Notes under the pieces: generated by a model
Seen by the model: the letters and a program-made list of their open reading frames with translations, nothing else
Told to the model about the DNA's origin: nothing
Database searches by the model: none
Program-made: the position numbers and the translations under genes
Shown: piece after piece, positions 4,697 through 43,636 of the stretch
Layout: the number at the start of each line of letters is the position of its first letter
Numbering within the stretch: position 1 is the stretch's first letter
NCBI GenBank assembly: GCA_014879765.1
Contig: JACSRL010000495.1
Location: 1-54,711, forward strand
Direction of reading: 5' to 3'
DNA length: 54,711 bases
Source: Anaerolinea sp.
GTDB lineage: Bacteria; Chloroflexota; Anaerolineae; JAAEKA01

Positions 4697-7600
4697 ATGC
4701 CAGGGAAACGAAGCAAGAACACCGGCTACATCGACCTGACGCGCGACGAATGGAACATCGTTACGGCGCAGAAGGTGGTGGAAGGCTTTTGGTTTCGCGA
4801 CCCTAAGGGCTGGTGGCAGGGGCCGGACGGCGTTGGGCCGCACCCGACGCTGGGCGTCGAAGTGCCTTACCTGTACTATCCGGGTATCCGGGACGCGATG
4901 ATCGCTGCGGGCGTGGACGAACCGTACCTCCCTGCGGGAGACTGGCTGCTCGCCGAGTACGTCCACGAGAGCCAGATGCCGCGCTGCACGCCCACCGCGA
5001 TCAACGGCTTCATCGAGCTGTATCTGGGTGCGCATAGCACGCTGTTCGGGCATCAGCTGGCGATGTACTACAGCCCCCAGCGCTACAACATCGTGGTCGG
5101 CGGAAGGGCGGCGGGGAAATGTAAATTGGGGTCCACCCTGGTAACGTTGGCCGATGGTTCCAGGAAGAAGATCAAGGACATCGAGCCTGGTGAGCGCGTC
5201 GCCTCGCTCGATCTGGACACGCTCAAGATGCGGACAGCGCGTGTCGCCCATGTGCTGCCGCAGCCCGAGAAGCCGCTGAACCGCATCACCACCCGGTCCG
5301 GCCGACGACTGACTGTGTCGTTCGATGATCCCATCCTGACGCCCTTCGGCTGGCGCAAGGCATGCGATCTGAAGCCGGGTGACAAGGTGGCGCACCCCAT
5401 CAGGCTAGAGCGCGAGCAGGTATCACAGACGCTGCCGGACCATGTGGCAGTCATTCTCGGCCTGCTCATTTCGGAGGGTGGTCTCAAGCAAAATCGATGC
5501 CAGTTCACCAACACAAGCGAGCAGCTCGTTGCTGATCTGCGGAAGGCATTGCATGAGATGGACCCGGATTTTGAGTTGAGACAGACCAAGAGCAACGCGA
5601 TCGACTACAGAATTGTTGACAATAGGCCGGGCAATCGCAGCCGTTTCTTGTCCTGGTTGCGCGAGATAGGGCTACTTGGGTGCAGCTCATACACCATGTT
5701 CGTGCCCGAAGAGGTGTTTCGGCAGCCAGATGCATGGATAGCCAGGTTCCTAGGCTACCTCTTCGCCGGGGATGGCTGCGCATATCTCAAGAAGAACGGA
5801 TGCCCAATAGCTCAGGGCAACATCAGCTATGCCTCGGCCAGTGAACGGCTCATCCGAGATGTTCAGGATCTGCTGCTCACTATCGGCATTCACAGTGCAT
5901 TGCGCCCAAAACCGGTGAAGTTCCACGGCAGGATATTCAACACCTGGGAGCTTGAGATCCCCTATGCCGACGACAGGCGGCGCTTCGCCAAGCTGATCCC
6001 GGTGCCGACCAAGCAGAAGGCGTTCGAGGTTGCAGGATACCAGTCAGGTGAAACCAACGGCAGCGACGATGTGGTGCCGCTCGAACTGATCCGCGACCAC
6101 TGCTACAATCGTGCACGTGCGATCGGCAAGCCCTTCGGCAAGCGCGTTGGCGATGAAAGGCCCTACAGCAACTTGCGGCCTCGATACAACCCCACCCGGC
6201 CCAAGCTGCGTCGGCTGGCCGAGTTCCTGGACGATGATCCGTTGCTGCTCAAGTATGCCGACTCCGATGTCTACTGGGGCACGGTGGTGTCCAACGAACA
6301 GCTTCCGCCAGAGCCGCTCTGGGACCTCACTGTCGAGAATGACCACAACTTCGTGGCCGATGGCATCGTGGTGCACAACACCGTCCCCCTGGCTATCGTC
6401 ATGCTCATCTGGACGGCGCTGCATCCTGGGGAACCGTGGTTGCACGTAGCCCTCTCCCTCGACCAGGCCAAGAAGGCGTACCAGGCCGCTCTGGACCTGG
6501 CCGGCCGCAAGCACTACAGGCACGACGGAACGCTGACGCCGCGCGCCTTCGCCGAGGTGTTCATCCAGGATCGCCGTGAGTTTCCGCAGCCCGACATCTA
6601 CTTTAAGCCCTGGGACGAGCACGACGGCGGTGAGGTGGCCGGCAAGCAGATGGCCGGCAATGTGATCATGTTCCGGCCGCTGGGCGACGAGGACCTGGAG
6701 CGGCTGCGCTCCACCGAGGCGGCCAACGCTTCCGGCGACGAGGTGCTGCGCGAGATCGCCGACGAGAAGACCATCCGCCATGTGCGTGGATGCTTACGCG
6801 GTCTCAACCCCTGGCTGCTGGCGCACCTGCCCAACAACCGGCGCCAGCGCATCGGCCAGTTGCAGCAGCTGATCGGCGTCGCCAATGTCAAGAACGACAA
6901 GGCTGCCATTGCGGCCTGCGAGGCTGAGTTGGCCAACATGGGCGTGGCGCGCGCCAAACGTTTCTTTGGCGTGGGCAATGCTGGCGAGCCGGAATGGGTG
7001 TGGGAAGTGATGGACCTGACTGAAGATGACCCGCATTACGGTTGGTTCATTCAGGTCACGCCTTACGACAACATCCGCCTCTCGCCCGAAGACCGGCAAG
7101 CCCTGGAGGAAGCCTGGGGCACCGACCCTGAGACGCGACAAGTCGAGTTGCTGGGACGCCGGCCGCTGGGGCTGGGCAACGAGATCGACCCGGATCTCCT
7201 GACCAGCGCGGTGCGCCACGACCTGGGCGGGCAGGTGGTGCAGGAGCACCGGGCCTACGGCGCGGTCCACTACGCCAAGCCGCCTGCGCCCGGCCACTAC
7301 CACATTATCGCGGGTGACCCGGGCAAGGGACGGCTGCCCAACCGCAACGCCTGGTGCGTGATGGCCCTGGACATCACTGCTAGCCCGGCCGAGATTGTCT
7401 TTTTTCAGATGGGCAACCTGGGCGCGCGGTCGAAAACCTACAAGCCCTACCTGGACGCCTACCGCCACGCGGTCAAGACCTACCCGGTGGTGTCGCCGGC
7501 CGATGTGATCTACGACAACGGCGGCCAGCAATCGGGCATGCACGAAGTCATCCTGGAAGAGTTGAGGCAGGACGCGGGCGGCGAGGCGATCTACGGCAGC

Positions 7601-7933
7601 CCCTACGACATGAGCAACAGCATGAAGTACACCGCGGCCAACTGGCTGATCGATCTTTTGCGCAAGGGCGCGCTGGTGATGCCGGAGCTGCGCATCCTCG
7701 TGCGCCAGGTGTCCAACTGGACCTTACCCGACAAGAAACTGGCCCAGGACGCGGCCATGGCGCTGTTCATGATTGTGCGCCGCGCCTACAACATCATCTC
7801 CGATCGCGGCATGGGCTATGGCGTGGAGCAGCAGACGCCGGAGTACCCCATGGACGGCGATGGGCATGCGGCCTGGGATTACCCTGAAGACATCCAGGTG
7901 CTGCACGACATCGAGGAGGTATCCTATGCGTAA
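4697..7933 (+). CDS. terL: phage terminase large subunit interrupted by an intein (1078 aa precursor, 658 aa after splicing)
   Basis: Walker A is split as GGRAAGK / TVPL by the insert. The C-terminal half has terminase-nuclease-like length. The HNH neighbour supports the call. Confidence 0.8.
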   Translation: MPGKRSKNTGYIDLTRDEWNIVTAQKVVEGFWFRDPKGWWQGPDGVGPHPTLGVEVPYLYYPGIRDAMIAAGVDEPYLPAGDWLLAEYVHESQMPRCTPTAINGFIELYLGAHSTLFGHQLAMYYSPQRYNIVVGGRAAGKCKLGSTLVTLADGSRKKIKDIEPGERVASLDLDTLKMRTARVAHVLPQPEKPLNRITTRSGRRLTVSFDDPILTPFGWRKACDLKPGDKVAHPIRLEREQVSQTLPDHVAVILGLLISEGGLKQNRCQFTNTSEQLVADLRKALHEMDPDFELRQTKSNAIDYRIVDNRPGNRSRFLSWLREIGLLGCSSYTMFVPEEVFRQPDAWIARFLGYLFAGDGCAYLKKNGCPIAQGNISYASASERLIRDVQDLLLTIGIHSALRPKPVKFHGRIFNTWELEIPYADDRRRFAKLIPVPTKQKAFEVAGYQSGETNGSDDVVPLELIRDHCYNRARAIGKPFGKRVGDERPYSNLRPRYNPTRPKLRRLAEFLDDDPLLLKYADSDVYWGTVVSNEQLPPEPLWDLTVENDHNFVADGIVVHNTVPLAIVMLIWTALHPGEPWLHVALSLDQAKKAYQAALDLAGRKHYRHDGTLTPRAFAEVFIQDRREFPQPDIYFKPWDEHDGGEVAGKQMAGNVIMFRPLGDEDLERLRSTEAANASGDEVLREIADEKTIRHVRGCLRGLNPWLLAHLPNNRRQRIGQLQQLIGVANVKNDKAAIAACEAELANMGVARAKRFFGVGNAGEPEWVWEVMDLTEDDPHYGWFIQVTPYDNIRLSPEDRQALEEAWGTDPETRQVELLGRRPLGLGNEIDPDLLTSAVRHDLGGQVVQEHRAYGAVHYAKPPAPGHYHIIAGDPGKGRLPNRNAWCVMALDITASPAEIVFFQMGNLGARSKTYKPYLDAYRHAVKTYPVVSPADVIYDNGGQQSGMHEVILEELRQDAGGEAIYGSPYDMSNSMKYTAANWLIDLLRKGALVMPELRILVRQVSNWTLPDKKLAQDAAMALFMIVRRAYNIISDRGMGYGVEQQTPEYPMDGDGHAAWDYPEDIQVLHDIEEVSYA
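5120..6379 (+). mobile_element. intein with LAGLIDADG homing-endonuclease domain (420 aa) inside the terminase P-loop
   Basis: Starts with Cys (CKLGSTLVTLADG). Ends VVHN and is followed by Thr(+1). Two LAGLIDADG-type motifs (VILGLLISEGG and FLGYLFAGDGCAY). Removing it recreates GRAAGKT. Confidence 0.85.
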
Positions 7934-8883: not shown

Positions 8884-10125
8884 CTAGGATGCCTTTAGAA
8901 ATTCGCGTATCAACAAGGCGGCGGTCGCGCCTTCGCCCGTGGCGGAAGCAACCTGTTTGGTGCTGCCCGCGCGCACATCACCCGCAGCAAAGACACCAGG
9001 AAGACTGGTCTCCAGGATCCCCGGCTCGCGGTTTTCGAAGCCCCTTGGCCGCTCGCCGTCATGTACCAGGTCGTGGCCGGTGACGACAAAGCCCCAGGGG
9101 TCGAGGCGCAGTTGGCCTGGCTTGAGGAAACCTGTGTTAGGGGTCAACCCGATGAACACGAAGACGCCAGCCGGATTGATGACCTCAGTGCTGCCGGTAT
9201 GGTTGTCCCGGATGGTGACTGCCTTGAGCTTTCCGCCAGCGCCGTCGAAACGCTCTACCTCGGCGCCAAAACGCACGGTGATCTCAGGGCGGCGTAACAC
9301 CTGCTCCTGGATCACCTGGCTCGCCTTAAGTTGGTCGCCGCGCACCAGCAGCGTGACGTGCTGCGCCATGTTGGCCAGGAAGAGGCTCTCCTCGGCTGCG
9401 CTGTTGCCGCCGCCCACCACGGCCACCGGCAGTCCTTTGTAGAACGGTCCATCGCAGGTGGCGCAGAAGTGGATGCCCGCGCCGATGAAGTCGTTCTCGC
9501 CCGGCGCGCCCAGGCGGCGATAGCGGCTGCCTGTGGTCAGCAGCAGGGCGTGGGCGCTGTATTCGCTGCCATCAGCCGTGCCCACACAGTGGTAGTTGTC
9601 GTGGCTGCGCATGCCCAATACATCCTGCGCCTGCAGCATCTCCACGCCAAAGCGGGCAGCCTGCTGACGCAACTGGTCGGCGAAATGGGCGCCCTCGACG
9701 CCCGTCGCAAAGCCAGGCATGTTGTCCAGGCGTTCTGTGGCCGCAGCCTGGCCGCCAAGGGCCGCGCGCTCGATCACCAGGGTGTCGATCCCCTCACGCG
9801 CCGCATAGAGCGCGGCCGTCAGGCCGGCCGGCCCGCCGCCAACCACGATCAAGTCGTAGTGGCTGCGCTCGGCGACCATCTTCAGGCCGAGCTTGGCCGC
9901 CAAGGCAGCGTTTGAGGGCTCTACCAGAATTGAGTCATCATCGAATTCGATGGTGGGAATGATGCGTTTGCCGTCGTTCTTGGCCAGCACATAGGCTTCG
10001 CCGGCCTTATCCTGCTCAATGTCCACCCAGCGATAGGGAATCTGGTGCTCGCCCAGGAATTGTTTGCTGCGCCGGCAGTCGGGACACCAGTAGGCGCCGT
10101 AGACGGTGATATCAGGTTGGGTCAT
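8884..10125 (-). CDS. trxB: glutaredoxin/NrdH-like domain fused to thioredoxin-disulfide reductase (413 aa)
   Basis: ORF 8884..10506 trimmed to ATG 10125. N-terminal domain has ITVYGAYWCPDCRRSKQFL (CPDC). FAD motif DLIVVGGGPAGLTAALYAAR, redox centre HFCATCDGPFY and NADPH motif VAVVGGGNSAAEE. Confidence 0.85.
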   Translation of the reverse strand: MTQPDITVYGAYWCPDCRRSKQFLGEHQIPYRWVDIEQDKAGEAYVLAKNDGKRIIPTIEFDDDSILVEPSNAALAAKLGLKMVAERSHYDLIVVGGGPAGLTAALYAAREGIDTLVIERAALGGQAAATERLDNMPGFATGVEGAHFADQLRQQAARFGVEMLQAQDVLGMRSHDNYHCVGTADGSEYSAHALLLTTGSRYRRLGAPGENDFIGAGIHFCATCDGPFYKGLPVAVVGGGNSAAEESLFLANMAQHVTLLVRGDQLKASQVIQEQVLRRPEITVRFGAEVERFDGAGGKLKAVTIRDNHTGSTEVINPAGVFVFIGLTPNTGFLKPGQLRLDPWGFVVTGHDLVHDGERPRGFENREPGILETSLPGVFAAGDVRAGSTKQVASATGEGATAALLIREFLKAS

Positions 10126-13650: not shown

Positions 13651-14910
13651 TCAGGGCTGGTAGATGCGTGTTTCCGGTTTGAAGGCCGCCCACGAGAACC
13701 AGAAATGATTGATGCCGACGACGGGGGTCAGTTGCCGGCCGGTCAACTCGCCAGCCACGGCGCGGCCGAGCAGGTCCCACTGGCTGCCGGTCTCGACATC
13801 GACGATTTGCTCACCGTCGCTACGGAAGGTCAGCCGATGGCCGTCCAGATGTGGCGAAAACGCCGCCGCTGAGCCCACGTCCCGGCCCTGGGCTATCGAG
13901 CTGCTGTCCAGGGCCGAGGCCACGCCGCTCTGCCAGAAGACGGCTACCGGCTCCCCGCCGACCTCGTCGTTGATCACCTGCATCTGCGCCAGCACATCGT
14001 AGGGATAGGCCACCGCCTCGCCGTTCAAGTCCACCGTCAACACCCTCGCCATGGGTTGCAATGTCCCTGGAGTGGCCGGCCCCCGGTACAGGAAAGGCGA
14101 CTGGTTGACGTCGTCGTAGCCCGCGTAGGGATTGCGCCCGTAGTCGCGGCTGAAGCCGGTCTCGCGCGACAGAACCAGTCCGTCAGGATGCGCCGCCTTG
14201 AACTCCTCCCAGGCGATGATGGTGGCCGGATAGAAGACCAGACGCCGGCCGGCCAGCTCACCGGCGATGGCGTCGCCGCCGGCCTGCTGCCACCAACTCT
14301 CGGTCTGGCGGTCGTACATGATCAGGTTGCTGAAGCGCAGCCGCCCGGTCGTGCCGAAGTCCAGCACGCGGCCGTCCAGTGTGCGCTCGAAGGCGATGGC
14401 CGTGTTGCACAGCGGGCAGAAGGTGACAGTCAGCGGCAGGCCGCCTATGTTGTCATTGACGATCTCGTGCCAGGTCATGATCTGCAAGGGATAGGCGCGG
14501 GCCTCTTCGCCGGCTTGCACCAGCACGACCGGCTCCTGCGAAGCCAGCCAGGCGTCAGCTTCGGCCACCGTCACGAACTGTGGGGCGTCGATGGCGGGTA
14601 TGCCGTCCTTGGGCGGCCCACCGGAGAAGACCTCGCGGTAAGAGACGGTGTGGCGGCTGAAGTCGGTGCTGAACTCGCGCTCAGCGCCCGACGGCGGCGT
14701 CTCTGGCGACAACAAGGCAGGCGTGGGAGACGCGCCAGAGGATGCAGTCGGCTCCACAGCAGGGGATACCTCGGGCTGCGTGGTGGCAGGCGCCGCGGCA
14801 GCGCCGTCGCCGCCTGAGCTGGCTGGCGCGGCCGGCGCTACAGCCGTGGAGCAGGCGCTCAGAAGCAGCGCTGTCGAGATCAGGACAAACCAGAAAGTCG
14901 AACGCATCAT
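13651..14910 (-). CDS. DUF3179 domain lipoprotein (419 aa)
   Basis: ORF 13651..15150 trimmed to ATGATG at 14910, preceded by GGAGG. Signal peptide with lipobox (LLLSAC). Motifs DGIPAIDAPQF, YPLQIMTWHEIVND, TFCPLCNTAIAF and YDRQTESWWQQ. Confidence 0.8.
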   Translation of the reverse strand: MMRSTFWFVLISTALLLSACSTAVAPAAPASSGGDGAAAAPATTQPEVSPAVEPTASSGASPTPALLSPETPPSGAEREFSTDFSRHTVSYREVFSGGPPKDGIPAIDAPQFVTVAEADAWLASQEPVVLVQAGEEARAYPLQIMTWHEIVNDNIGGLPLTVTFCPLCNTAIAFERTLDGRVLDFGTTGRLRFSNLIMYDRQTESWWQQAGGDAIAGELAGRRLVFYPATIIAWEEFKAAHPDGLVLSRETGFSRDYGRNPYAGYDDVNQSPFLYRGPATPGTLQPMARVLTVDLNGEAVAYPYDVLAQMQVINDEVGGEPVAVFWQSGVASALDSSSIAQGRDVGSAAAFSPHLDGHRLTFRSDGEQIVDVETGSQWDLLGRAVAGELTGRQLTPVVGINHFWFSWAAFKPETRIYQP

Positions 14911-14933: not shown

Positions 14934-15485
14934 CTAACCTTCTTCGGCTGCCAGATTGCGCAGCGCGGCCAGCAGCTTCTCCACCGGCGGACGATCCACC
15001 GGATCCTTGCTGGCGTGGGCCAGGCGGACGACGCCATCTCCATCCACGATGAAGTCGCCGCCCAGTTGATGGGGGTCGCCCTGCACCGGCAGCAGTTTTT
15101 GGCCGCGCAGGACCAGCTTCAGATAGTGCCACATGACGTGGGGGCTCCACACCCGCACGAACGACGTGCCCAGCCCGTAGGCTTGATAGGTCGCACGCTC
15201 CGAGTCCAGCAGCAATGGATAGGGTGAGCCCGTGTCCTGCTGCCAGGCGCGCGCCCAGAATTCCGCGCCGAACGAGATGATCAACACCTGCACGTCCAGC
15301 GCGTCCAGGTCGTTCTTGAAATGGCGCAACTGCGCCACATGCTCACGGCAGGGCAGTCAGCCCAGGTGGCGCAGGAAGACCAGCAGCACCGGCCGGCCGC
15401 GGTAGTCGCGGAGGGCCACCGACTGGCCCTCCAGGGTAGTCAACGTGAGGTCAGGGGCGAGATCGCCCGGCTTGATTTTGGGCAT
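14934..15485 (-). CDS. peroxiredoxin-like (AhpC/TSA, PRX_like2-type) protein with in-frame TGA at the first redox Cys; candidate selenoprotein (183 codons)
   Basis: ORFs 15357..15581 and 14934..15338 are in the same frame, separated only by TGA at 15359-15357. The read-through sequence is VLLVFLRHLG-U-LPCREHVAQL, where homologs have G-C-x-x-C-R. A hairpin GUGGCGC-AGUU-GCGCCAU starts 18 nt downstream of the TGA. Confidence 0.6.
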
Positions 15486-15508
15486 GGGTTCTCTGTCCAG
15501 GCAACTTG

Positions 15509-16972
15509 CTAATGCGCGCAGCCGTGCAGCCAGGCCCGGCCATCGCGTGCCAGCAGCTCGTCGGCCTCGGCCGGGCCCCAACTGCCGGGCTCATAGCTGG
15601 CCAGAGGCGCTTTGCCGGCTCGCCAGGCATTCAGGATCGGGTCCAGCAGCCGCCAGGCCAGCTCGGCCCGGTCGCCGCGCGTGAAGAGCGATGCGTCGCC
15701 TTGCAGCGCATCCAGCAGCAAGCGCTCGTAGGCTTCGGGAATCGAATTGGCCTGGAAGGAATCCCGATAGTGGAAGGCCAGGTTGACGGTGTGCAGATCG
15801 GCCACGGTGTCGGGCACCTTGGCCTGCGTACGCAGGTGAATGCCCTCGTCCGGCTGCAGGCACAGCGTCAGCACGTTCGGCGCGATCTCGGCGCCGGCCG
15901 GCAGGGGGAACATCAGGTGGGGCGGCTGCTTGAACTGGATGGTGATCTCGCTGGCCTTGGCCGCCAGCTGTTTGCCGGAGCGCAGGTAGAAGGGCACGCC
16001 CTGCCAGCGCCAGTTGTCGATGTAGAAGCGGATGGCGGCGTAGGTCTCTGTCTGCGAGGCCGGATCAATGCCCGGCTCGTCCAGGTAGCCGCGGTACTGG
16101 GCTCGCACCGTGTGCGGCGCAACATCATCCTGGTGGATGGGGCGGATGGCCCGCAGCAGCTTGACCTTCTCCTCGCGCTGCGCCTCGGCGTCGAACGAGG
16201 CCGGCGGCTCCATTGCCACCAACGACAACAGTTGCAGGATGTGGTTCTGGAACATGTCGCGTAGTGCGCCGACGCCGTCGTAGTATTTGGCGCGGCTGCC
16301 CACGCCCACACTCTCGGCCACGGTGATCTGTACGTGATCGACGATGTTGCGGTTCCACAGCGGCTCGTAGATGGCGTTGGCGAAGCGGGTGACCAGGATG
16401 TTCTGCACCGTTTCCTTGCCCAGGTAGTGGTCGATGCGGTAGATCTGGCTTTCGTCCAGCACCTGGTGGATGGACTGGTTGAGCGCCCGCGCTGAGGCTT
16501 CGTCGTCGCCGAAGGGCTTCTCGATGATCACGCGCCGCCAGGGGCGGGATGACCCGGCCCCACCATCCTCGGCCACCAGGCCGGCCGCGCCCAGGTTGGT
16601 GACGATGTCGGCGTAGAAGCGAGGTGGCGTCGCCAGGTAGAAGAGGCGATCGGCCGGACCAGCCTCCAGCGCAGTCAGCGCTTCACCCAGCGCCGCGAAC
16701 GCGGCCGGGTCGGTGAAGTCACCGGACAGGTAGCTAAGGCGAGCGGCAAAGGCGTCCCACTCGGCGTCGTTGAAGGAGAAATCGGCGAACTGCTCGACGC
16801 CTGCGCGGCCGGCTCGGCGCAGGTCTTCGTCGCTCCATGACCGCGTGGCAAAGCCGATGATATGAAAGTCGTCGGGCAAACGGCCCTTGCGATACAAACT
16901 GAACAGTCCCGGGAGCAGCTTGCGCTGCGACAGATCGCCCGAGGCGCCAAAGATGATGACAGATGTTGACAT
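15509..16972 (-). CDS. zwf: glucose-6-phosphate 1-dehydrogenase
   Basis: Motifs [16 protein letters not shown] and [10 protein letters not shown]. Full length of 487 aa. Confidence 0.95.
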
Positions 16973-21355: not shown

Positions 21356-23047
21356 TCAACCGGCGCAGCAGGAAAGCTGCGCCACGTCCTTTTCGAAGGT
21401 CTGCGCGGCCAGCTTCAGTCCCTCCACCTGCGTCAGGTAGGGGAAGAGCATCTCGCGCAGGTCGTCGACGGTGAAGCCGTAGCGCAGGCCCATGCGCACG
21501 GCCAGCGCGGCCGTCTGGATGATCTCGCCGCCCTCGGCCGCCAGCACGTGCGCGCCCAACAGCCGGCCCGAGTTGCCGTCGGCCACCAGCTTGATCAGCC
21601 CGCGCGTGTCGCGCGCGGCCAGCGCCCGCGGCACGTAGGCCAGCGGCAGCGTGGTCGCCTTGATCTCGTAGCCGCGCTCGACGGCCTGGGCTTCGGTCAG
21701 CCCCACCGTGGCCACCTGCGGATCGGTGAAGATCACGTCGGGCAGCACGCTCAGGTCAAGGCGCTTGTGGTTGCCCTCCAGCGCGTTGGCCGCGGCGATG
21801 CCGCCGCCGACCGCGGCCACGTAGACCAGCTTGGGATGCTGCGTCACGTCGCCGATGGCGTATATGCGCGGGTTGCTGGTCTGCATGAAGTCGTCCACCA
21901 CGATGAAGCCGTCCTTGTCCAGCGTCACGCCGGCATCATCCAGACCCATGTTTGCCGTGTGCGGGACCCGGCCCACGGCCATCAGCACCTGCTCGGCGCG
22001 AAACTCGCGGCGCTGGCCGTCCACCTCGGCCGTGACCACCTTGTCGTCGCCCTCCTGGCGGATGGCCAGCGGGGTGACGCCGGTGTGGACGATCAATCCT
22101 TCGTCCCGCAGATAGCCGGCCAGGGCCTCGGCGATCTCCGGCTCGTGCTCGGGGATCAGCCGCGGGCTGCGCTGCAAGATCGTCACCTGTGTGCCGAAGC
22201 GGGCAAAGGTCTGCCCCAGTTCCAGAGCGATGGCCCGGCCGCCGATCACAAGGAGGGAACGCGGCTGCTGCGGCAGCGCCATGGCTGAGGTGCTGGTCAG
22301 CACGTCTATCTCCTCGATGCCGTCCAGAGGCAGGATGCGCGGCGCGGCGCCGCTGGCGATGACGACCAGGCCGGCCGTGAGCGTGCGGCCGTCGTCCAGG
22401 GCCACGCTGCCGTCGGGCTGCACGCGTCCCCGGCCCTGGATCAGCGTGATGCGGTCGCCGTAGGAGGCCAGCACGTCCTCATACTTGCCCTGACGCAGCT
22501 CGCCCACCAGGTCGTCCTTCTGGCCGACAACCGCGGGCCAGTCCAGGCCGAGCGCGGCCGTCTGCACGCCGGCGAAGGGGTGATGCCCCGCCCGGTGGTA
22601 GGCCTCTGCGGCCCGGATCAGCGCTTTGGAGGGCACGCAGCCGATGTTGACGCACGTGCCCCCGAGGACGCCGGCCTCGACGATGGCGACCCGCCTTCCC
22701 AGCTCGGCCGCCTTGATGGCCGCGGCCATGCCGCCGCCGCCCGTGCCGATGACTACCAGATCGAAGTCGAAGTCCTCCTTGGCCGCAGCCGGTGGCTCTG
22801 TCGCAGTGCTCGACCGCTGGCGCACGCTGGCATGGTAGCCCGCTTGCTGCACGGCGCTGAGCAACAGCGCCTCGTCCACGCCGGGTTGGGCCGACAAGAT
22901 CGCCTTCTTCGACGTCCAGCCGGGCACCTCCACCTGCACGACGCCCTCGACCCCTTGCAGGGCCTGGGTGACGTGGTGGGCGCAGGTGTCGCAAGTCATG
23001 CCCAGCACGGCTAGTTCAATTTCCTGGGTTGGTTCTTGGTTGCTCAT
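21356..23047 (-). CDS. merA: mercuric reductase with N-terminal HMA (NmerA) domain
   Basis: HMA motif GMTCDTCAHH. Redox centre GGTCVNIGCVPSK. C-terminal vicinal cysteines in QLSCCAG. Confidence 0.95.
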   Translation of the reverse strand: MSNQEPTQEIELAVLGMTCDTCAHHVTQALQGVEGVVQVEVPGWTSKKAILSAQPGVDEALLLSAVQQAGYHASVRQRSSTATEPPAAAKEDFDFDLVVIGTGGGGMAAAIKAAELGRRVAIVEAGVLGGTCVNIGCVPSKALIRAAEAYHRAGHHPFAGVQTAALGLDWPAVVGQKDDLVGELRQGKYEDVLASYGDRITLIQGRGRVQPDGSVALDDGRTLTAGLVVIASGAAPRILPLDGIEEIDVLTSTSAMALPQQPRSLLVIGGRAIALELGQTFARFGTQVTILQRSPRLIPEHEPEIAEALAGYLRDEGLIVHTGVTPLAIRQEGDDKVVTAEVDGQRREFRAEQVLMAVGRVPHTANMGLDDAGVTLDKDGFIVVDDFMQTSNPRIYAIGDVTQHPKLVYVAAVGGGIAAANALEGNHKRLDLSVLPDVIFTDPQVATVGLTEAQAVERGYEIKATTLPLAYVPRALAARDTRGLIKLVADGNSGRLLGAHVLAAEGGEIIQTAALAVRMGLRYGFTVDDLREMLFPYLTQVEGLKLAAQTFEKDVAQLSCCAG

Positions 23048-23472
23048 TGTTCAGTTTCCTTGACAATTGGTTGCTTTTCCAACGATGCGAGAAAGGGACA
23101 CTCGCCTTCAGGTCCGCCCAGCGCGCAGGCGGCGATCAGCTCCGCCAGCGCGCCCTGGATCGCCTGCAGCGAGCGAATCTTCTCGGCCACGTCGGCCATC
23201 TTGCGCTCGGCCCGCTGGCGCACCACATCACAGGAGGTCTCGGCGTCCACGCGCAGCGCCAGCAATTCACCGATCTCTTCCAAAGTGAAGCCCAGGGCCT
23301 GCGCCTGCTTGATGAAACGCAGCCGCGCCACGCTCTGGTCGCCATACAGCCGGTAGCTCGACACTGTGCGCGGCGGCGCAGGCAACAGCCCGCGGCGCTC
23401 GTAATAGCGGACTGTCTCAATATTCACCTCGGCCAATTTGGCGATGCGTCCTATGGTTAGCAGTGATGGCAT
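23044..23472 (-). CDS. merR: MerR-family Hg(II)-responsive transcriptional regulator
   Basis: HTH LTIGRIAKLAEVNIETVRYYERRGLL. Cys triad pattern (ETSCDVV and ACALGGPEGECPF). The stop overlaps the merA start as ATGA. Confidence 0.9.
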   Translation of the reverse strand: MPSLLTIGRIAKLAEVNIETVRYYERRGLLPAPPRTVSSYRLYGDQSVARLRFIKQAQALGFTLEEIGELLALRVDAETSCDVVRQRAERKMADVAEKIRSLQAIQGALAELIAACALGGPEGECPFLASLEKQPIVKETEQ

Positions 23473-23501
23473 TTCCAGGCCTTTCTCGTCATGATGGAAT
23501 C

Positions 23502-29092: not shown

Positions 29093-31225
29093 TCACGCCG
29101 CCGTCACGCCCAGTTTGACACGGCGCAAAAGCTGGGCATTGACGGCGACAATGATGGTGCTCAACGACATGAACAGCGCACCCACTGCCGGGGAGAGCAG
29201 GATGCCGAAGGCCGGATAGAGCACGCCGGCCGCCAGCGGGATGGCGATCACATTGTAGCCTGTGGCCCAGACCAGGTTCTCGATCATCTTGCGGTAGCTG
29301 GCCCGGCTTAGCTCGAAGATCTTGACCACGTCCAGCGGGTTGCTCTGCACCAGGATGATGCCCGCCGACTCCACGGCCACGTCGGTGCCGCTGCCGATGG
29401 CGATCCCAACATTGGCCCGCGTCAGGGCTGGCGCATCGTTGACGCCGTCGCCGACCATAGCCACCCGCCTGCCCTGGGCCTGCAACTCCGCCACCTTCTG
29501 GTCCTTGTGCTCCGGCAGCACTTCGGCGAAGACCTGGTCGATGCCCAGTTCGTCGGCCACGGCTTGGGCCACGGCCTGGCTGTCGCCAGTGAGCATGGCC
29601 ACCTGCACGCCCAGCTCGTGCAGCCGCTGCACAGCTTGCCGGCTTTCGGGCCGGATAACATCGGCCAGGGCGAAGGCGGCGGCGATCTGGCCATCATGCA
29701 CCAGGTAGATCACGCTCTGGCCTTTGCGCCCGGCTTCCTGCGTGAAGGCAGCGATGGGACCGGCAAGGCGCAGTTCCAGCATCTCCAACAGGCGGGGGCC
29801 GCCGGCGTAAGCGGTTTGACCATTCACGCTGGCTCGGACGCCACGGCCTTTGAGCGCCTCGAAGCTGCTTACCGCGGGCAGGGCCAGCTCGCGCTCGGCC
29901 GCGGTCTGGCGGATGGCTTTGGCTACCATGTGCTCAGAGTCGCCTTCGATGGCTGCCGCCAGCGCCAGGGCATCCTGTTCCGTCCAATTGTCAGCGGCCT
30001 TGACGCCCACCACACCGAACTCGCCCTTGGTCAGCGTGCCGGTCTTGTCGAAGATCACCACGTCCAGATTGCGAGCCTCTTCCAGAGCCAGACGGTCCCG
30101 GACCAGGATGCCGTTGTTGGCGGCCAGGCCGGTGCTGATGGCCACCACCAGCGGGATCGCCAGACCCAGCGCGTGGGGGCAGGCGATGACCAGCACAGTA
30201 GCCACGCGTGTGACCACTTCTACGTTGAAGCCAGCGCCGATGGTCCAGGCGATGGCCGTCAGGAAGGCGGCGGCCAGCGCGATGTAAAACAGCCAGCCAG
30301 CGGCCCTGTCAGCCAGGATCTGGGTGCGGGATTTGCTCTGCTGAGCCTGTTCCACCAGGCGCATGATCCCGGCCAGGGTTGTCTGATCGCCGGTAGCGCC
30401 GACCCGGATGCGCAGGCTGCCGTCGCCATTGATCGTTCCTGCAATCGCTTTGTCCCCAGGCCGCTTCTTGACCGGCTTAGACTCGCCGGTGATCATGGCC
30501 TGGTTGACGTCGGACTCGCCCTCTTCCACCAGGCCATCGACCGGAATGCTGGCGCCGGGCCGCACCAGTACCAGATCGTCCGTGCCCAGGTCGCCGGTGG
30601 AGATGGTCTCGACGCGGCCATCCGGGCCGATGCGCTCGGCTTCGTCGGGCATCAGCCGGGCCAGTTCCTGCAAGGCGCCGGAGGCCTGGCGCACGCTGCG
30701 CATCTCCAGCCAGTGGCCCAGCAGCATGATGTCGATCAGCGTGACCAGCTCCCAGAAGAAGCCCCCCTGAGGATCGACCAACAGCGCGATCAGGCTATAG
30801 GCGTAGGCGACGATGATGGCCAGGGAAATCAGGGTCATCATCCCCGGCTGGCGGTTGCGCAGCTCGGGCCGGGCCATCTGCAGGAAAGGCAGGCCGCCGT
30901 AGAAGAACACGATCGTGGCGAACACCGGTCCAATCCACCGGCTGCCGGGGAACTCTGGCATGGTGAAACCAAACCAGCCCTGCAGCATGGGGCTGTAGAG
31001 CAACACCGGGATGCTCAAGAGCAGCGAGACCCAGAAGCGGTTGCGGAACATGAGCTCGTGGCCGCTGTGGTCGACCCCGTGGCCATCGTGGCCATCGTGG
31101 CCGGCCCCGCTCGTGGGCGCGCCGTGATCCATGGCATGGCCGGCGTGGGGATCGCTGTGGCCAGCGTGGATATCGTGGCTCTGTGTGTGACCGGTGTGGT
31201 TCACCGGCCTGTGATCGTGATCCAT
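29093..31225 (-). CDS. copB: copper-translocating P1B-type ATPase, CopB-like (His-rich N-terminus, CPH motif)
   Basis: ORF trimmed to ATG 31225, preceded by AAAGGAA. His-rich start [35 protein letters not shown]. Motifs [26 protein letters not shown] and [12 protein letters not shown]. Confidence 0.9.
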
Positions 31226-31230
31226 TTCCT

Positions 31231-31629
31231 TTACTGCACCGGCAAGATGACATCCTGGCGGAGGAGCAGGCCGTCTTCGTTGCGCACCTCCACTGTTACT
31301 TTCCATTCGCCGCTCATGGAGAAGGGCGCAAAAGTTGCGTAGCGTCCTTCTCCCTGTTCGATGGCCTCGCCCTGCATTACACCCATGCTGTGGCCGACCA
31401 TGTCGGCGAGGATGTTGACGGTGGCCCCGGTCAGCGGCTGGCCGCCCGCGTCCAGGGCGTCGATAATTAGTTCAGTCTGCACGTTGCTGGTGGGTGGACT
31501 AGGGTTGGTGCTGAGGCTGATCTGCGGCTGGCCAGAGCCGGCCGGGGTCGGTGTGGCTGCCGGCGCGCAGGCGCTGATCAGGAGGACGGCAACCATCAGC
31601 ACAGTGAAGATGAGAGACTTGAGTTGCAT
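31231..31629 (-). CDS. YtkA/FixH-like lipoprotein (132 aa)
   Basis: ORF trimmed to ATG 31629, preceded by GAAGGAAA. Lipobox LLISAC. C-terminal beta-rich region [21 protein letters not shown]. Immediately upstream of copB. Confidence 0.6.
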
Positions 31630-31681
31630 CACATTTCCTTCTATAGGCATTAGGTCTACCACGAGACGTAAGGTTGATTCC

Positions 31682-31726
31682 CAGCAAGCGCTGCAAAGCC
31701 CCTCTGAGGCGTTGCAGCGCTTGCTG
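31682..31726. repeat. 15-bp-stem intercistronic hairpin
   Basis: CAGCAAGCGCTGCAA, a 15-nt loop, then TTGCAGCGCTTGCTG. Confidence 0.8.
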
Positions 31727-31767
31727 CGGGCGAAGGGTGACCCTTCAACAGCAAGGCGAGCGCCAGC

Positions 31768-32136
31768 CTAACTTGCCAGAGCCATGATGACCATCTGGGC
31801 GTGCATGATCATGTGTTCGGCGTGCATGGGGTCGATATGCACACCCGCCTGTGCCTGTACCTGATTGACAAAAGCATTCAGCAGGTTGATCGCCACATCC
31901 GGTTGGCCGCGATCCAGGGCAGCTTGCGCGCCGTCGAGCTTTGCCTGCAACGCATTGGCAATGTCAGCGTTGGTGATATGTCCCATCTCCAGCGCGTGGT
32001 GGACGCAGTGCTGGAGCGACTCGACGGTGTTCATCTCATGAGCACACATGTGTTCTTCGCTGGCAAAGGCCGGCGCCGCCAAGGCGGCGGTGAGCAAGGC
32101 AAGAAGAAGAAAGACAGACAACATCCGATTACGCAC
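31768..32136 (-). CDS. secreted His/Met-rich helical protein (FIMAH-like segment)
   Basis: Signal peptide MRNRMLSVFLLLALLTAALAAPAFA. Segments EEHMCAHEM, HCVHHALEMGH, LQAKLDGAQAALDRGQPDVAINLLNAFVNQVQAQAG and HIDPMHAEHMIMHAQM. Confidence 0.6.
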   Translation of the reverse strand: MRNRMLSVFLLLALLTAALAAPAFASEEHMCAHEMNTVESLQHCVHHALEMGHITNADIANALQAKLDGAQAALDRGQPDVAINLLNAFVNQVQAQAGVHIDPMHAEHMIMHAQMVIMALAS

Positions 32137-32190
32137 AATAGACCTCCTTGTTGGTCCAGGTTTGATTGGGGTCGCAAGGTTGCGACCTAT

Positions 32191-33291
32191 TTACGCTTCT
32201 ACCTCGATCATCATCATCAGACCGCCTGGCTCCTCGCCGTCGTTGGTGGTGTGATGCGAGATGTGGCAGTGTAGCATCCATACGCCTGGCTCGGTGGCGA
32301 CGAACTCGATGTCGTAGCGTTCGCCGGGAGCCACCGACACCGTATCCTTGGTCAGTTGTGCCCCCTCCGGCACAGGGTGGCCGTCGGTCGCCACAATCTT
32401 AAACGGCACACCGTGCAGGTGCATGGGATGGATGAACTGGCCTACGGCGACAAAGCGCAGCCTCACCTTGTCGCCTACCTTGACCTTAAGGGTCTCGGTG
32501 GCCGGAAACGCTTTGCCGTTGATGGTGAAGTAGTTCGGGTCCATGCCGCCCATGGGCATGGCGCCGAAGGTTTGGTTGTTGACAAAGCGCCACTCGTTGA
32601 GCACCAGCACCTGGTCCACGTCGGGCGGGTCCGCTTCAGGCGTCGCCGGGTCGATGATGAACGCCCCGTGCAGCCCAGCGCCGATCTGGATGTCTGGCTC
32701 GACGTGGCTGTGATACCAGTAGGTGCCAGCCGGCTTGGCCTCGAACTCGTAAACGAAGGTCTCACCGGGCGCAATCGGCGGCTGGGTCACATCCGGCACG
32801 CCGTCCATGGCGTTGGGCACCGCGATGCCGTGCCAGTGGATCGTGGTATCATCGGGTAGGTCGTTGCGCACGATGAAACGCACGCGGTCGCCCTCGGTGA
32901 CGCGGATCAGCGGGCCGGGCACCATGCCGTTGTAGGTCCAGGCCACCTGTTCGACGCCATCCAGAAAGGTCCAGCGCACAGGCTGGGCAGTGATCTCGAA
33001 AACCTTAACGCCGTCTTCCTCACGATAGGGCAGAGGCTGGTTGCCTTGGCTCACCGTCGCTGCCGGAACGTCCTTGTCAGGCAGGGCAGCCATCATATGG
33101 GCCATGCCTGGTGAGATGGTGGGTGCAGTCATCATGCTGGGCATCGGCGTCGGGGCTGCCGCAAGAGCAGATTCTGCCTGCGGCGAGGATCCCGCCGCGC
33201 AGCCCGCCAAGGCCACTACCGTCACCACCAGCAAACCAAGCCACAGAAAATGTCGATTGATTTTTACCACCGTCGTTTCGCCTCCTACCAT
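32191..33291 (-). CDS. small (two-domain-size) multicopper oxidase lipoprotein
   Basis: Copper ligand motifs HWHG, WYHSH, HPMHLHG and HCHISHH. Lipobox ALAGC. An alternative GTG start at 33270 follows GGAGG. Confidence 0.85.
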   Translation of the reverse strand: MVGGETTVVKINRHFLWLGLLVVTVVALAGCAAGSSPQAESALAAAPTPMPSMMTAPTISPGMAHMMAALPDKDVPAATVSQGNQPLPYREEDGVKVFEITAQPVRWTFLDGVEQVAWTYNGMVPGPLIRVTEGDRVRFIVRNDLPDDTTIHWHGIAVPNAMDGVPDVTQPPIAPGETFVYEFEAKPAGTYWYHSHVEPDIQIGAGLHGAFIIDPATPEADPPDVDQVLVLNEWRFVNNQTFGAMPMGGMDPNYFTINGKAFPATETLKVKVGDKVRLRFVAVGQFIHPMHLHGVPFKIVATDGHPVPEGAQLTKDTVSVAPGERYDIEFVATEPGVWMLHCHISHHTTNDGEEPGGLMMMIEVEA

Positions 33292-33537
33292 CTATCTCAG
33301 TTGCTCGCGCATCTCTTGGAACTCAGTTGTGGAAATTTCGCCCTGGGCATAGCGTCGCTTGAGGATCTCCTCGGGCGACGCCGGGACCTCGCTGCGGTCG
33401 CTGCCGTCCGGCGGCGACCAAGCTCGGGTCGTCTGCGGGAAAAGACGGCTGATCAGCCAGACGGCGCCGGCAATGATCAGCACCCAGAACAGAATCATGA
33501 AAATCAGGCCGAAGCCTCCAAAACCCATACCCATCAT
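33292..33537 (-). CDS. SHOCT-domain membrane protein (81 aa)
   Basis: N-terminal TM helix. C-terminal ILKRRYAQGEISTTEFQEMREQL. Confidence 0.75.
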   Translation of the reverse strand: MMGMGFGGFGLIFMILFWVLIIAGAVWLISRLFPQTTRAWSPPDGSDRSEVPASPEEILKRRYAQGEISTTEFQEMREQLR

Positions 33538-33660
33538 GGCCGGTTACCTCCTTTCGCACGAAACTGCGTGCTGCGGACGACTTGTTGACAGGCCCCAGTA
33601 TAGTCCCCGATGTTGACAGATCAATGAAGCGAATATGACAGTTGTGTGAAGGCGTCGTAG

Positions 33661-33697
33661 AGGCGCCCGGCACTTGACCCCAAAGTGCCGGGCGCCT
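33661..33697. repeat. REP-like hairpin with GCCCGGCACT core downstream of the kinase gene
   Basis: AGGCGCCCGGCACT, loop TGACCCCAA, then AGTGCCGGGCGCCT. Confidence 0.8.
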
Positions 33698-33704
33698 GTC
33701 AACG

Positions 33705-34816
33705 CTAGGACGTGAGAGGCAAGGTGAAGAAAAAGCTGCTGCCCTGGCCAGGGCCGGGGCTCTCTGCCCAAATGCGGCCGCCGTGAGCTTCCACCAGGTG
33801 TTTGCTGATGGTCAGGCCGATGCCGCTGCCGCCGCCGGCCCTTGAGCGCGATTTGTCCACCCGATAAAAGCGCTCGAAGACGTGGGGCAAATCGCCCCTG
33901 GCGATGCCGATGCCGTTGTCTGTGATGGCGACCAACACATGGTCATGCTGGCGGCTGGCCCGGACGACGACTGCGCCGCCCGGCGGCGTGTACTGCAAGG
34001 CGTTGCCCAGCAGGTTGAGCAGCACCTGCATGATGCGGCCTGGATCGACGAACACGGCGGGCAAGTCTGCACCCGCGGCGCTTGTCAAGCTGACGTCCTT
34101 GTCCTCGAACTGAGGCCCTAGCCGTTCGACCGCGGCGTCGATCAATGCAGAGATCGCGCTTCCTTGGCATTTGATCGGGATCTGGCCGGCTTCGGCCCGG
34201 CTCAGTTCCTCCAGGTCTTGCACCAGGCGCTGCAAACGCGCCGTCTCGCGCTGGGCGCTCAAAAAGGTAGCCGCTTCAGGCGCCACAACGCCATCGGTCA
34301 GGGCTTCCAGGGTGCTGCGGATGCTGCTTAACGGCGTGCGCAACTCGTGGGCGACGTTGCCGATCAGCTCCAGGCGGCGCTGCTCGGTCTGTTCCAGGGC
34401 CTCGGCCATGCGGTTGAAAGACATAGCCAGATCACCCAGTTCATCAGGGCTGATCGCCTGGACGCGTTGATGATAATCCCCGCCGGCGATGCGCCGGCTG
34501 GCCTGCGTCATGGCTTGCAGCGGCCCAATGATACGCCGGGTGGTGATAGCGCTGACAATCACGGCGGCAGCAATGCCGGCCAGCGTCGCCACCAGGATGA
34601 CCTCGTTGACCGCAGCGTGGAAGCTGGCGTTCAGATCGGACGCCTGTTGCGGCCCGCCGCGCAACGCTGCCTCCATATCAGCGATGTGGTGTTGGATGGC
34701 GGTTACCGCGTGGAAGTTGGCTGTCGCCGCCAGCACGACAAAAGCAACCGCAATGATCAGCAAATAGGAGATGAGAAGCTTCCATCCCAGGCTGCGGCGC
34801 AGCGCGTCCAGTAGCT

Positions 34817-34820
<4 letters not shown>
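33705..34820 (-). CDS. sensor histidine kinase (TM-HAMP-HisKA-HATPase)
   Basis: H-box VAHELRTPLSSI. N-box LLNLLGNALQYTP. G-boxes DNGIGI and GGSGIGL. Confidence 0.9.
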
Positions 34821-35506
<686 letters not shown>

Positions 35507-35658
35507 AGGGAGCAGTATAGCATGATGCAGAGAACTTGGGAAGCGATTGAGCGCTGAAGCGCCGGGCGCTTGATCGATCAAACACCCGGCGCTTTTGACT
35601 GGGCAGCCGCAAGCCAGCGACTTCACCCAATCATGCAGTTACCCAGTCACCCAGTCCC

Positions 35659-37262: not shown

Positions 37263-38315
37263 TTATTCATCGTCGTCAGTCGCCGCAATGGCCTGCACGG
37301 CTGGTTCGATGCTCAGCAACAGCAAGAGCGTGATGATCACAGCCGAGGTCAGGCACCAGATGCAGACCGCCCGGATCACGAAGGGCTCCAGGTAGGTCAG
37401 GTAGAGCGAGAAGAGCACGCCGAACAGAGTGAAGACGAACAGGGCGATGGACGCCAGCTGGGCCAGGGCCTCGCTGCCGCGCCGGCTGACCAGCCAGGCC
37501 ACCAGGATGATCACGTAGCCCACGGCGCCCACCACGCCCACCGGTAGCACGCCGAAAAGGCGGGAGTAGGGGCTGCTCTGCACCGTGTTGCAGTCGCCCA
37601 CCGGTCCACAGACGGCCTCGACCATCTGGGTCTCGACGTAGGACAGGTACAGCGCCACGCCCAGCCCCAGCACAATCAGCAGTGGATAGAGCCAGGGCGC
37701 GCGCTGGGCCACCGCTCCGGCTACGCCGGATGCGCCGCGTGTCAGGCTGACCCCTGTGTAGATCAGCGACGCGACCATGCCAACCATGATGGCGATGGCG
37801 AGGCCAAAGCCGTTGGGCCGCACGGGCGCGATCGCCCCCAACTCCGCAGCGAAGTCAGCATCAAGCTGCAGCAGGCTGGGTTGCTCAGCGCCGCCAGCCG
37901 CCAGGGTTTGAGCCACCAGCGCCGGCATCTGCTGCGGGATCTGCTGCGAGCCGACCAGCACCTGCTCGTTCATGATCAACAAGGGCACGCCGACTTGCTC
38001 CTTGGGCACGCCGTGGGCCGCCGCTGTCGCGTAGAGTTGGTCGGTATCCTCCAGCGTCACGACTTCGATCAACTTGATCTCCAGTTGGCTGCCGTACTGC
38101 GCCTGCAAGGCGGGCAGCACGCCGTTCAACACATCCTCGCAGTGGCCGCAACCCTCCATCCAGTACATCACGCCGCGCGCCACCGGCGGCTGCGGCGCAG
38201 TCTCGCGTGCATCGATGGCGATCGGCGCGGCATACACAGGCAGCGGCGTTGCCGCCGCCATCGCCAGTGTCGCCACGCAGGCTAAAGCAATGCTCAAGAT
38301 CGTCCAGTTGCGCAA
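37263..38315 (-). CDS. thioredoxin-like domain fused to a VKOR (vitamin K epoxide reductase) family membrane domain
   Basis: Signal peptide. WMEGCGHCEDVL (CxxC). VKOR loop cysteines CGPVGDC and active-site CIWC within 4-5 TM helices. Confidence 0.8.
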   Translation of the reverse strand: MRNWTILSIALACVATLAMAAATPLPVYAAPIAIDARETAPQPPVARGVMYWMEGCGHCEDVLNGVLPALQAQYGSQLEIKLIEVVTLEDTDQLYATAAAHGVPKEQVGVPLLIMNEQVLVGSQQIPQQMPALVAQTLAAGGAEQPSLLQLDADFAAELGAIAPVRPNGFGLAIAIMVGMVASLIYTGVSLTRGASGVAGAVAQRAPWLYPLLIVLGLGVALYLSYVETQMVEAVCGPVGDCNTVQSSPYSRLFGVLPVGVVGAVGYVIILVAWLVSRRGSEALAQLASIALFVFTLFGVLFSLYLTYLEPFVIRAVCIWCLTSAVIITLLLLLSIEPAVQAIAATDDDE

Positions 38316-38600: not shown

Positions 38601-39065
38601 CTATCGAAACGCCGGCATGTCGCCCAGCATCGCCTGCAGCTCGGCCAACTGGCCGGCATAGGCCGGCTCCAGCAGCGGCGGGCACTCGGCCGGCTTCTGC
38701 TGGCCGGCGATCAGCTTCAGAGCGAAGGTGAAGCAGGTCGGCTGGCCGCAGAGGCGGCAATTGGTGCCGGGCAGGAGCTTGAAGGCAGCCATGGGCGCCG
38801 GCCGTTGGCGCGCCTCGAAGTCGGGCTCGATCTCGTTGCGGCGCTCCCAGGCGCGGTTGACCAGCTTGACCAGACCATCGACCTCATCGACCGCGGCCTG
38901 CCGGTCCTCCACGTTGCTGACGGCGATGCGATCGGCCTGGAAGACGACGAAGTGGCCGGCCTTGCGCCAACTCAGGGCCGGCACAGCCGGGTTGTAGAGC
39001 GCGCCGCGCAGGGTGGCGTTGAGGTAGGGCAACGCCTCGCGGATGTCGACCGGCACAAAGGCCAT
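38601..39065 (-). CDS. Fe-S-cluster-domain (PF04060-like) protein, 5' end apparently severed by the IS
   Basis: C-terminal LPGTNCRLCGQPTCFTFALKLIAGQQKPAECP resembles the corrinoid-protein/RACo-type Fe-S domain. ATG 39065 lies 1-8 nt from the IS end. Confidence 0.65.
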   Translation of the reverse strand: MAFVPVDIREALPYLNATLRGALYNPAVPALSWRKAGHFVVFQADRIAVSNVEDRQAAVDEVDGLVKLVNRAWERRNEIEPDFEARQRPAPMAAFKLLPGTNCRLCGQPTCFTFALKLIAGQQKPAECPPLLEPAYAGQLAELQAMLGDMPAFR

Positions 39066-43242: not shown

Positions 43243-43346
43243 TCATTTCCAGTTGGCTTTGTACGACCAAATCACTCAATATGCGGTTTATTGCATGTAA
43301 AAAGACCTGCGAAAACCCTGCGACACCAGGTCGCAAGGTGTTGCCC

Positions 43347-43601: not shown

Positions 43602-43636
43602 GGGGATGTCTCCTTGACGAACGGCATGTGAGGAGG

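Follow-up and report, generated by a model that had tools for sequence, protein, structure and literature searches.

Abundant peroxiredoxin-like (Prx-like) selenoproteins with a thioredoxin-like UxxC motif (U, selenocysteine or Sec; x, any residue) had turned up by 2005, in the Sargasso Sea survey (PMC1088965), and the Prx-like thiol:disulfide oxidoreductases (PF00578, UxxC/UxxU) are listed among the high-confidence selenoprotein families in reviews from 2022 and 2026 (PMC9312934, PMC13188914). As described in these sources they have an AhpC-TSA domain, UxxC in place of the peroxiredoxin TxxU, and homologues with Cys (PMC9312934, PMC13188914, PMC1088965). A selenocysteine insertion sequence (SECIS) hairpin is found just 3' of the UGA, and UxxU forms occur occasionally. 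SelL, known from fish, invertebrates and marine bacteria, is likewise Prx-like and has a UxxU motif that forms a diselenide bond (Shchedrina et al., 2007, cited through PMC2397514 and PMC2398784). Here a gene related to these is described from contig JACSRL010000495.1 of the Anaerolinea sp. assembly GCA_014879765.1, which was analysed over its whole length of 54,711 nt (the window). The gene, 14934..15485 on the minus strand, is interrupted by an in-frame TGA. Judged from sequence comparison it very probably encodes a SelL-related redox protein as one unit, UGA codon 43 being recoded to Sec with a hairpin in the coding sequence as the SECIS element.

The window protein shares all the properties listed above for the Prx-like class, the UxxU forms being found among its relatives. 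The reference protein of the class is WP_010940744.1; the window protein was placed there by domain and motif, having both the AhpC-TSA domain (PF00578) and a thioredoxin-like U-x-x-C (U-L-P-C), and the members found here are almost all from Chloroflexota. With the eukaryotic and marine-bacterial SelL it has in common the Prx-like thioredoxin fold and a Sec at the CxxC-equivalent position, while relatedness to fish SelL rests on the name of an NCBIfam family. SelL proper has two Sec residues in U-x-x-U and forms a diselenide, whereas the window protein has a single Sec (U-L-P-C) and would form a selenenylsulfide. Unlike the SelL of marine bacteria, the relatives come from metagenome-assembled genomes (MAGs) that are named from groundwater, sludge and sediment projects and are not clearly marine. 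The gene is a mis-annotated member of the already catalogued SelL-related/Prx-like UxxC family, not a new kind of system.

Gene structure, family and fold

The gene starts with an ATG at 15485-15483, a biologically sensible start 24 nt past the stop of zwf, ends with a TAG at 14936-14934 and contains 183 sense codons including the one UGA. An earlier, sequence-only reading of this DNA had pointed to two open reading frames (ORFs) in the same frame, 15357..15581 and 14934..15338, both on the minus strand and split by a TGA. These coordinates were confirmed, and the TGA at 15359-15357 (codon 43) is the sole stop between them. Read-through gives MPKIKPGDLAPDLTLTTLEGQSVALRDYRGRPVLLVFLRHLG-[TGA]-LPCREHVAQLRHF...AAEEG, with the motif in the context VFLRHLG-U-LPC-R. 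The predicted Sec (15357..15359, -) is thus the first residue of the U-L-P-C redox motif, and the Cys of the motif is encoded by the TGC of codon 46 (15348..15350, -). Matches obtained with tblastn in relatives span residues 1-179, across the TGA. The same reading expected that gene callers would split the gene, and so they have: GenBank holds it as two coding sequences, MBE2234722.1 (42 aa) and MBE2234721.1 (131 aa), without a Sec residue. A C-terminal fragment from the same 90% cluster, deposited from another MAG, carries the GenBank name "SelL-related redox protein" (MEI2691778.1). Of 28 other confidently identified genes in the window, 10 end with TGA; it is accordingly a usual stop codon here, and UGA is not reassigned genome-wide.

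When Cys is put at the TGA, the protein matches the Pfam families AhpC-TSA (PF00578; 3e-22, 79 bits against a cutoff of 26), Redoxin and AhpC-TSA_2, which bears out the peroxiredoxin-like, AhpC-TSA_2 identity first proposed for it. The NCBIfam family NF040769, "SelL-related redox protein" (SelL_rel_redox), is matched with 171 bits against a curated cutoff of 120 (E = 1.8e-50). This match is nearly full length, residues 10-174 falling on positions 3-172 of the 173 in the profile, and no difference at the family level is seen. The cutoffs of other redoxin and peroxiredoxin models are missed by a wide margin; the model for the Sec-containing peroxiredoxin PrxU (NF040737) gives 32 bits.

The nearest solved relatives by sequence are Mycobacterium tuberculosis AhpE, other peroxiredoxins and ResA-type oxidoreductases, with E-values around 1e-9 and matches confined to the N-terminal 105 residues. 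AlphaFold was used to model the closest full-length Cys homologue, which is 61% identical to the window protein (predicted local distance difference test 91.7, predicted template modelling score 0.88). The model has a thioredoxin/peroxiredoxin fold with the CxxC directly ahead of a helix (residues 44-54). From the model and the AhpE alignment, a family-specific helical insertion of about 35 residues was found at residues ~106-141. The best structural matches of the model are Bcp4 and AhpE (template modelling scores of about 0.7-0.87), as well as ResA.

Although canonical peroxiredoxins (AhpE, Bcp/PrxQ) are the best matches both by sequence and by fold, the active site is a different one. In the phmmer alignment to M. 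tuberculosis AhpE (E = 4e-9), FLRHLGCLPC stands against FFPLAFTGIC, so that the Cys of the AhpE TGIC motif, presumably the peroxidatic one, aligns with Cys46 of the window protein. A peroxidatic site has a Thr three residues before the peroxidatic Cys and a conserved Arg before an R-x-x-F-x-x-D strand. In the window protein the Thr position of T-x-x-C is Sec, and the residue equivalent to Arg116 of AhpE, as the alignment is read, is Leu141, which precedes a G-G-D-F-I-V-D strand. The canonical peroxidatic triad is therefore absent, and the protein lacks what the active site of an AhpC/TSA peroxidase needs. It also differs from the TxxU selenoproteins of the PrxU type, since its Sec sits three residues further upstream. 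The thioredoxin-like U-x-x-C suggests instead a selenol/thiol-disulfide oxidoreductase that would cycle through a selenenylsulfide, and this is most likely what the mature protein is.

The TGA codon and the hairpin downstream of it

Among 5.8 billion proteins searched, 195 relatives came up, and the best 120 of them were analysed. As many as 100 of these are C-terminal fragments only, 118-161 aa long and covering 63-75% of the query, which is the pattern expected of genes cut at the TGA. The remaining 20 are full length and align end to end. Cys stands exactly at the TGA column in 19 of them, within a nearly invariant VFLRHLG-C-LPCR (the motif G-C-L-P-C-R), as the sequence-only reading had anticipated for homologues. 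That reading had also named beforehand, as a result that would speak against it, a TGA outside the conserved CxxC column; the alignment of homologues places the TGA within that column. One database homologue, P0032, reads Trp in the Sec column of its translation (LGWLPC), and its C-terminal tail is long and odd. It is presumably a gene call made under a UGA=Trp code on a contig containing the TGA.

The identical split gene was found on at least 24 contigs of independent assemblies, and a sequencing error is thereby excluded. A genome scan with one genome per species gave 295 relatives, and the best 80 were taken with their flanks. They are almost all from Chloroflexota MAGs (Anaerolineae, Ardenticatenales, Caldilineaceae and Promineifilaceae), with a few from Dehalococcoidia and Chthonomonadales. 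All 80 loci have TGA at the Sec column, with FLRHLG or FLRHLA before it and LPC after it, and the loci identical to the window (L001-L006) have the TGA there as well. Both sides of the TGA are conserved in the related genomes, the tblastn matches extending over residues ~1-180. Compared with the nearest species-level relative (L007), the 126 nt 5' of the TGA contain 34 differences, of which 19 fall on third codon positions; 31 of the 42 residues are identical. The third-position bias and this degree of identity indicate that the N-terminal 42 codons are under purifying selection in frame. Several genomes have two Sec-containing paralogues, sometimes only 6 kb apart (L040:10127 and L040:16316); further pairs are L039 and L071, both on contig JACRBQ010000036.1, and L052 and L054, which are found in one MAG.

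The hairpin, GUGGCGC-AGUU-GCGCCAU, lies in codons 50-55 (V-A-Q-L-R-H; 15321..15338, -) and begins 18 nt past the TGA. It has a 7-bp stem, with the 5' arm at 15338-15332, the AGUU loop at 15331-15328 and the 3' arm at 15327-15321. Folded in isolation, the 18 nt reach -11.4 kcal/mol (z = -3.7), and none of 200 shuffled sequences folded as well. The published model of bacterial SECIS elements (bSECIS) has a loop of 3-9 nt, a stem of 4-16 bp, a G within the first two nucleotides of the loop, a UGA-to-loop distance of 16-37 nt and a minimum free energy of -7.5 kcal/mol or lower (PMC13188914). The window hairpin agrees with it on all points, with its 4-nt AGUU loop, 7-bp stem, spacing of 25 nt and energy of -11.4 kcal/mol.

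Covariation was analysed in 54 Sec-form sequences, aligned without gaps from the TGA. Columns 22-28 past the TGA pair with columns 33-39 in 86% of the cells, while shifted partners give 17-69%. Both sides vary in five of the seven pairs, and cells with a double change number 39, compared to 11.3 +/- 7.7 after shuffling (0 of 500 shuffles reached 39). The pair 27-34, for example, is G-C in 26 sequences and A-U in another 26. RNAalifold independently recovers five core pairs and the loop. All 54 sequences keep these core 5 bp and the AGUU loop, and four of the five core pairs show compensatory changes. The loop with its closing pair (C-AGUU-G, codons CAG-UUG) is invariant in all 54, although Leu has six codons. 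Moreover, the helix is kept where the encoded peptides differ (GCGAUGC/GCAUCGC, GUGUCGC/GCGACAC and GUCGCGC/GCGCGAC). The FLRHLA clade has a hairpin in the same place with an AGGUU loop and weaker covariation. Four Cys-encoding homologues form just 2-4 of the seven pairs; one of them (L089) encodes the same Q-L-C residues, but with CTA for Leu. The hairpin that had been put forward from the single sequence, at 15338-15321 with a GU-containing loop and within the distance range of SECIS elements, is thus confirmed and is found to be conserved, covarying and in line with the bSECIS consensus.

In five of the 80 relatives a second TGA, 9 nt further on, replaces the Cys codon and gives U-x-x-U. 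The sites are L034:4746-4757, L036:10127-10138, L079:1367-1378, L083:312-323 and L086:10130-10141, the motif being U-L-H-U in L083 and U-L-P-U in the others. These genes have one hairpin 3' of both TGAs, its loop lying 25 nt past the first UGA and 16 nt past the second. Since both spacings lie within the 16-37 nt of the model, one hairpin could serve both codons. Bacterial SelL reportedly has the same arrangement, a single hairpin 3' of both UGAs. The five UxxU proteins are candidate diselenide proteins of the SelL type.

Reading of the UGA codon

Direct support for reading the locus as a selenoprotein gene comes from its structure, from the alignment of the predicted Sec with Cys, from the conserved TGA, from the covarying SECIS-type hairpin and from the fold. 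On this reading one gene, 15485..14934 (-), would give a cytoplasmic thioredoxin-fold protein of 183 residues with the redox motif Sec43-Leu-Pro-Cys46. UGA codon 43 would be recoded to Sec in translation, the hairpin 18 nt downstream of it acting as a bacterial SECIS that recruits SelB with Sec-tRNA(Sec) to the ribosome. Ribosomes that did not recode would stop after 42 residues. Placed just ahead of the first helix after the motif, Sec43 would be the attacking nucleophile, and resolution of the intermediate by Cys46 would give a selenenylsulfide. Re-reduction would follow, for which a possible agent is a nearby fusion of glutaredoxin and thioredoxin reductase (Grx-TrxR), with NADPH supplied through the adjacent pentose-phosphate genes.

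Several observations weigh against this scheme. ARAGORN found no tRNA at all in the 54.7-kb window, hence no tRNA-Sec there, and SelA, SelB and SelD were not found in NCBIfam scans of 30 window ORFs. In 86 related loci (1.2 Mb) ARAGORN found 16 tRNAs, none of them for Sec, and tblastn of the related loci with approximate Escherichia coli SelD and SelA probes gave no match. The capacity of an Anaerolinea-type organism to decode Sec is assumed from its phylum. For Chloroflexi the presence of tRNA-Sec (PMC5389517) and of selenoproteins (PMC1794560) is reported, and some Chloroflexota (Dehalococcoidia) are among the largest bacterial selenoproteomes listed in one source, with 46-49 genes (PMC13326102). 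As for the hairpin, it is short and lacks the bulged U of the E. coli type. The 68-nt window 3' of the TGA is not unusually stable (z = 0.35), and its minimum free energy fold does not contain the hairpin. In a custom scan 40 TGA sites in the window passed a loose rule for SECIS-like hairpins; the hairpin alone is therefore not beyond chance, and the evidence from the single sequence is weak. Most hairpin positions are also under amino-acid constraint (V-A-Q-L-R/C-H/Q), so that part of the covariation pairs a synonymous site with an Arg/Cys replacement. Finally, the proposals for reductant and substrate come from gene neighbourhood. The linkage is real but recurs in a minority of loci only (DUF3179 in 12 and Grx-TrxR in 6, both within 6 kb of the SelL-like gene, and DUF1684 in 7), and a role as redox partner is a lead. 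The comparative evidence, that is the TGA at the Cys column in 80 of 80 loci together with the covariation of the hairpin, is at the level of sequence far beyond chance.

Of the other ways to read the locus, a true stop at the TGA has hardly any probability left. The gene would then be a pseudogene, a product of sequencing error, or two genes encoding a 42-aa peptide and a protein of 131-134 aa from the GTG at 15338. Gene callers and the NCBI record do split it into MBE2234722.1 and MBE2234721.1, there is an in-frame GTG 18 nt past the TGA, and UGA is a normal stop in this genome. However, the TGA recurs in at least 24 independent assemblies and 80 of 80 species, purifying selection acts on both flanks in a single frame, and the full-length Cys homologues show that the two halves are one domain. 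Judged by the modelled fold, strands beta1-beta3 and the entire CxxC active site would be missing from the 134-aa fragment. The in-frame start differs between database fragments, which are 118-161 aa long, so that no internal start is conserved. It is also very unlikely that the UGA is recoded to Cys or another standard amino acid, whether by an opal-suppressing tRNA-Cys of the selC* type with a SelB-type factor or by near-cognate read-through. Some bacteria do have a selC* tRNA-Cys(UCA) with its own SelB* and CysRS*, which reads a Sec-UGA as Cys in a reporter (PMC5389517). The window contains no tRNA to show which one reads the UGA, and the Trp of P0032 makes the codon look ambiguous, though that is probably a gene call with another code. 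The groups named for selC* in that source are Firmicutes, Thermodesulfobacteria, Nitrospirae and Proteobacteria and not Chloroflexi, and the genomes with selC* described there all had a complete Sec system as well (PMC5389517). If Cys were inserted, nothing would explain why 80 of 80 species retain both TGA and hairpin, given that the Cys homologues manage with TGC and neither of the two, and the UGA stands at a classic Sec/Cys redox position.

A separate question is whether the hairpin is the signal. It might be a by-product of the conserved peptide V-A-Q-L-R/C-H/Q or have another role in the RNA, such as mRNA stability or translational pausing, with Sec inserted through another signal. That stem and loop coincide with strongly conserved residues, that the loose SECIS rules are easily passed by chance and that the E. 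coli-like bulged U is missing all fit this idea. So does the Rfam search, where nothing relevant was found at gathering thresholds over the whole window or at E <= 10 over 15200-15500. The idea is nevertheless highly improbable, because the pairing is kept under other peptides, as in GCG-AUG-CAG-UUG-CAU-CGC (A-M-Q-L-H-R), GUG-UCG..CGA-CAC and GUC-GCG..CGC-GAC. Synonymous choice is fixed as well, with UUG in 54 of 54 sequences, GCG pairing with CGC and GCA with UGC, whereas Cys forms with a similar peptide lose the pairing. The UxxU relatives keep the loop 25 and 16 nt from their UGAs, both inside the range of 16-37 nt. Recoding of UGA to Sec with this hairpin as the SECIS element is the reading retained below.

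Genomic neighbourhood and significance

The gene order is tkt, tal, gnd and zwf, then the selenoprotein gene and then a gene for a DUF3179 lipoprotein. The ORF of zwf (glucose-6-phosphate dehydrogenase; 15509..16972, -; Pfam domains G6PD_N and G6PD_C in the identical locus L001) stops 24 nt short of the selenoprotein gene, and the two genes are probably co-transcribed. Directly downstream lies the DUF3179 gene (13651..14907, -; Pfam DUF3179 on L001), whose product begins with a signal of the lipoprotein type (...LLSAC) and contains the motif CPLC. The UxxC/T selenoprotein families listed in PMC9312934 include DUF3179, but the window DUF3179 is a Cys form. The Grx-TrxR gene (8884..10125, -) encodes 413 aa, a glutaredoxin/mycoredoxin domain fused to a thioredoxin-reductase-like flavoprotein (NCBIfam TRX_reduct with 289.7 bits, under its cutoff of 343, and a mycoredoxin-like domain). 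It is found 4-5 kb from the selenoprotein gene in L007 and, on the downstream side, in the window. It adjoins the Cys orthologues in L087 (3618-4856) and L088 (3563-4813), where the order is SelL-like, Grx-TrxR, DUF3179. From this neighbourhood the fusion is a possible dedicated reductant of the selenoprotein. A gene for a VTT/DedA-domain membrane protein adjoins the Cys-form homologues in three of four loci (L087:1978-2757, L088:1965-2723 and L089:259-951).

Elsewhere in the window, genes related to metal and redox stress occupy the stretches 21356-23475, 29093-35626, 37263-38315 and 42523-44416 (-). They encode MerR and a MerA-like reductase with an HMA domain, a copper P-type ATPase, a multicopper oxidase, a heavy-metal-type histidine kinase with its response regulator, a VKOR-domain protein, a BshB/MshB-like deacetylase and an OsmC-like protein. 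The 1078-aa product of an ORF at 4697-7933 (+) resembles a replicative helicase (NF005852, 220 bits, below cutoff) and contains an intein (TIGR01443, C-terminal splicing region). A transposase of the IS630 family, with 107 bits (cutoff 100), is encoded in the middle of the contig at 39389-40300 (+). Further selenoprotein genes were searched for among in-frame TGAs filtered by GC content at third codon positions, and with a scan for bSECIS plus redox context. Neither approach yielded another credible candidate, the other matches being Arg/Pro/Ala-rich out-of-frame translations. A small ORF with a CdhE-like N-terminal domain (38601-39065) was likewise rejected as a selenoprotein, there being no in-frame TGA near its Cys motif.

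A wider role can be sketched, though as a whole it is unlikely. The Sec protein might be the terminal acceptor of a dedicated NADPH relay running from the pentose-phosphate genes through the Grx-TrxR fusion to the Sec-x-x-Cys protein. Across Anaerolineae and Ardenticatenales this relay would have become fixed in the Sec form, with a particular function under stress such as repair or detoxification tied to the DUF3179 lipoprotein and the mercury and copper resistance genes. The UxxU relatives would in that case be non-marine bacterial diselenide proteins.

For annotation the consequence is immediate, as the public record holds two meaningless fragments of 42 and 131 aa, and joining them restores a redox protein with a predicted Sec nucleophile. 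The mis-splitting affects most of the family, as seen from the C-terminal fragments that make up 100 of the best 120 database relatives and from the TGA in 80 of 80 genome relatives. The current view of Sec biology is unchanged by the finding. Of modest interest are the UxxU variants in MAGs of various environments and the recurrent neighbourhood with Grx-TrxR and DUF3179. The hairpin, with its covariation and its invariant loop of AGUU (or AGGUU), illustrates cleanly what a SECIS in a coding region looks like in the phylum and could be used to train selenoprotein finders. In the Chloroflexota clade to which the relatives belong the Sec form is apparently near-universal, and this suggests that many Chloroflexota of the Anaerolineae/Ardenticatenales type depend on selenium for at least the SelL-related protein.

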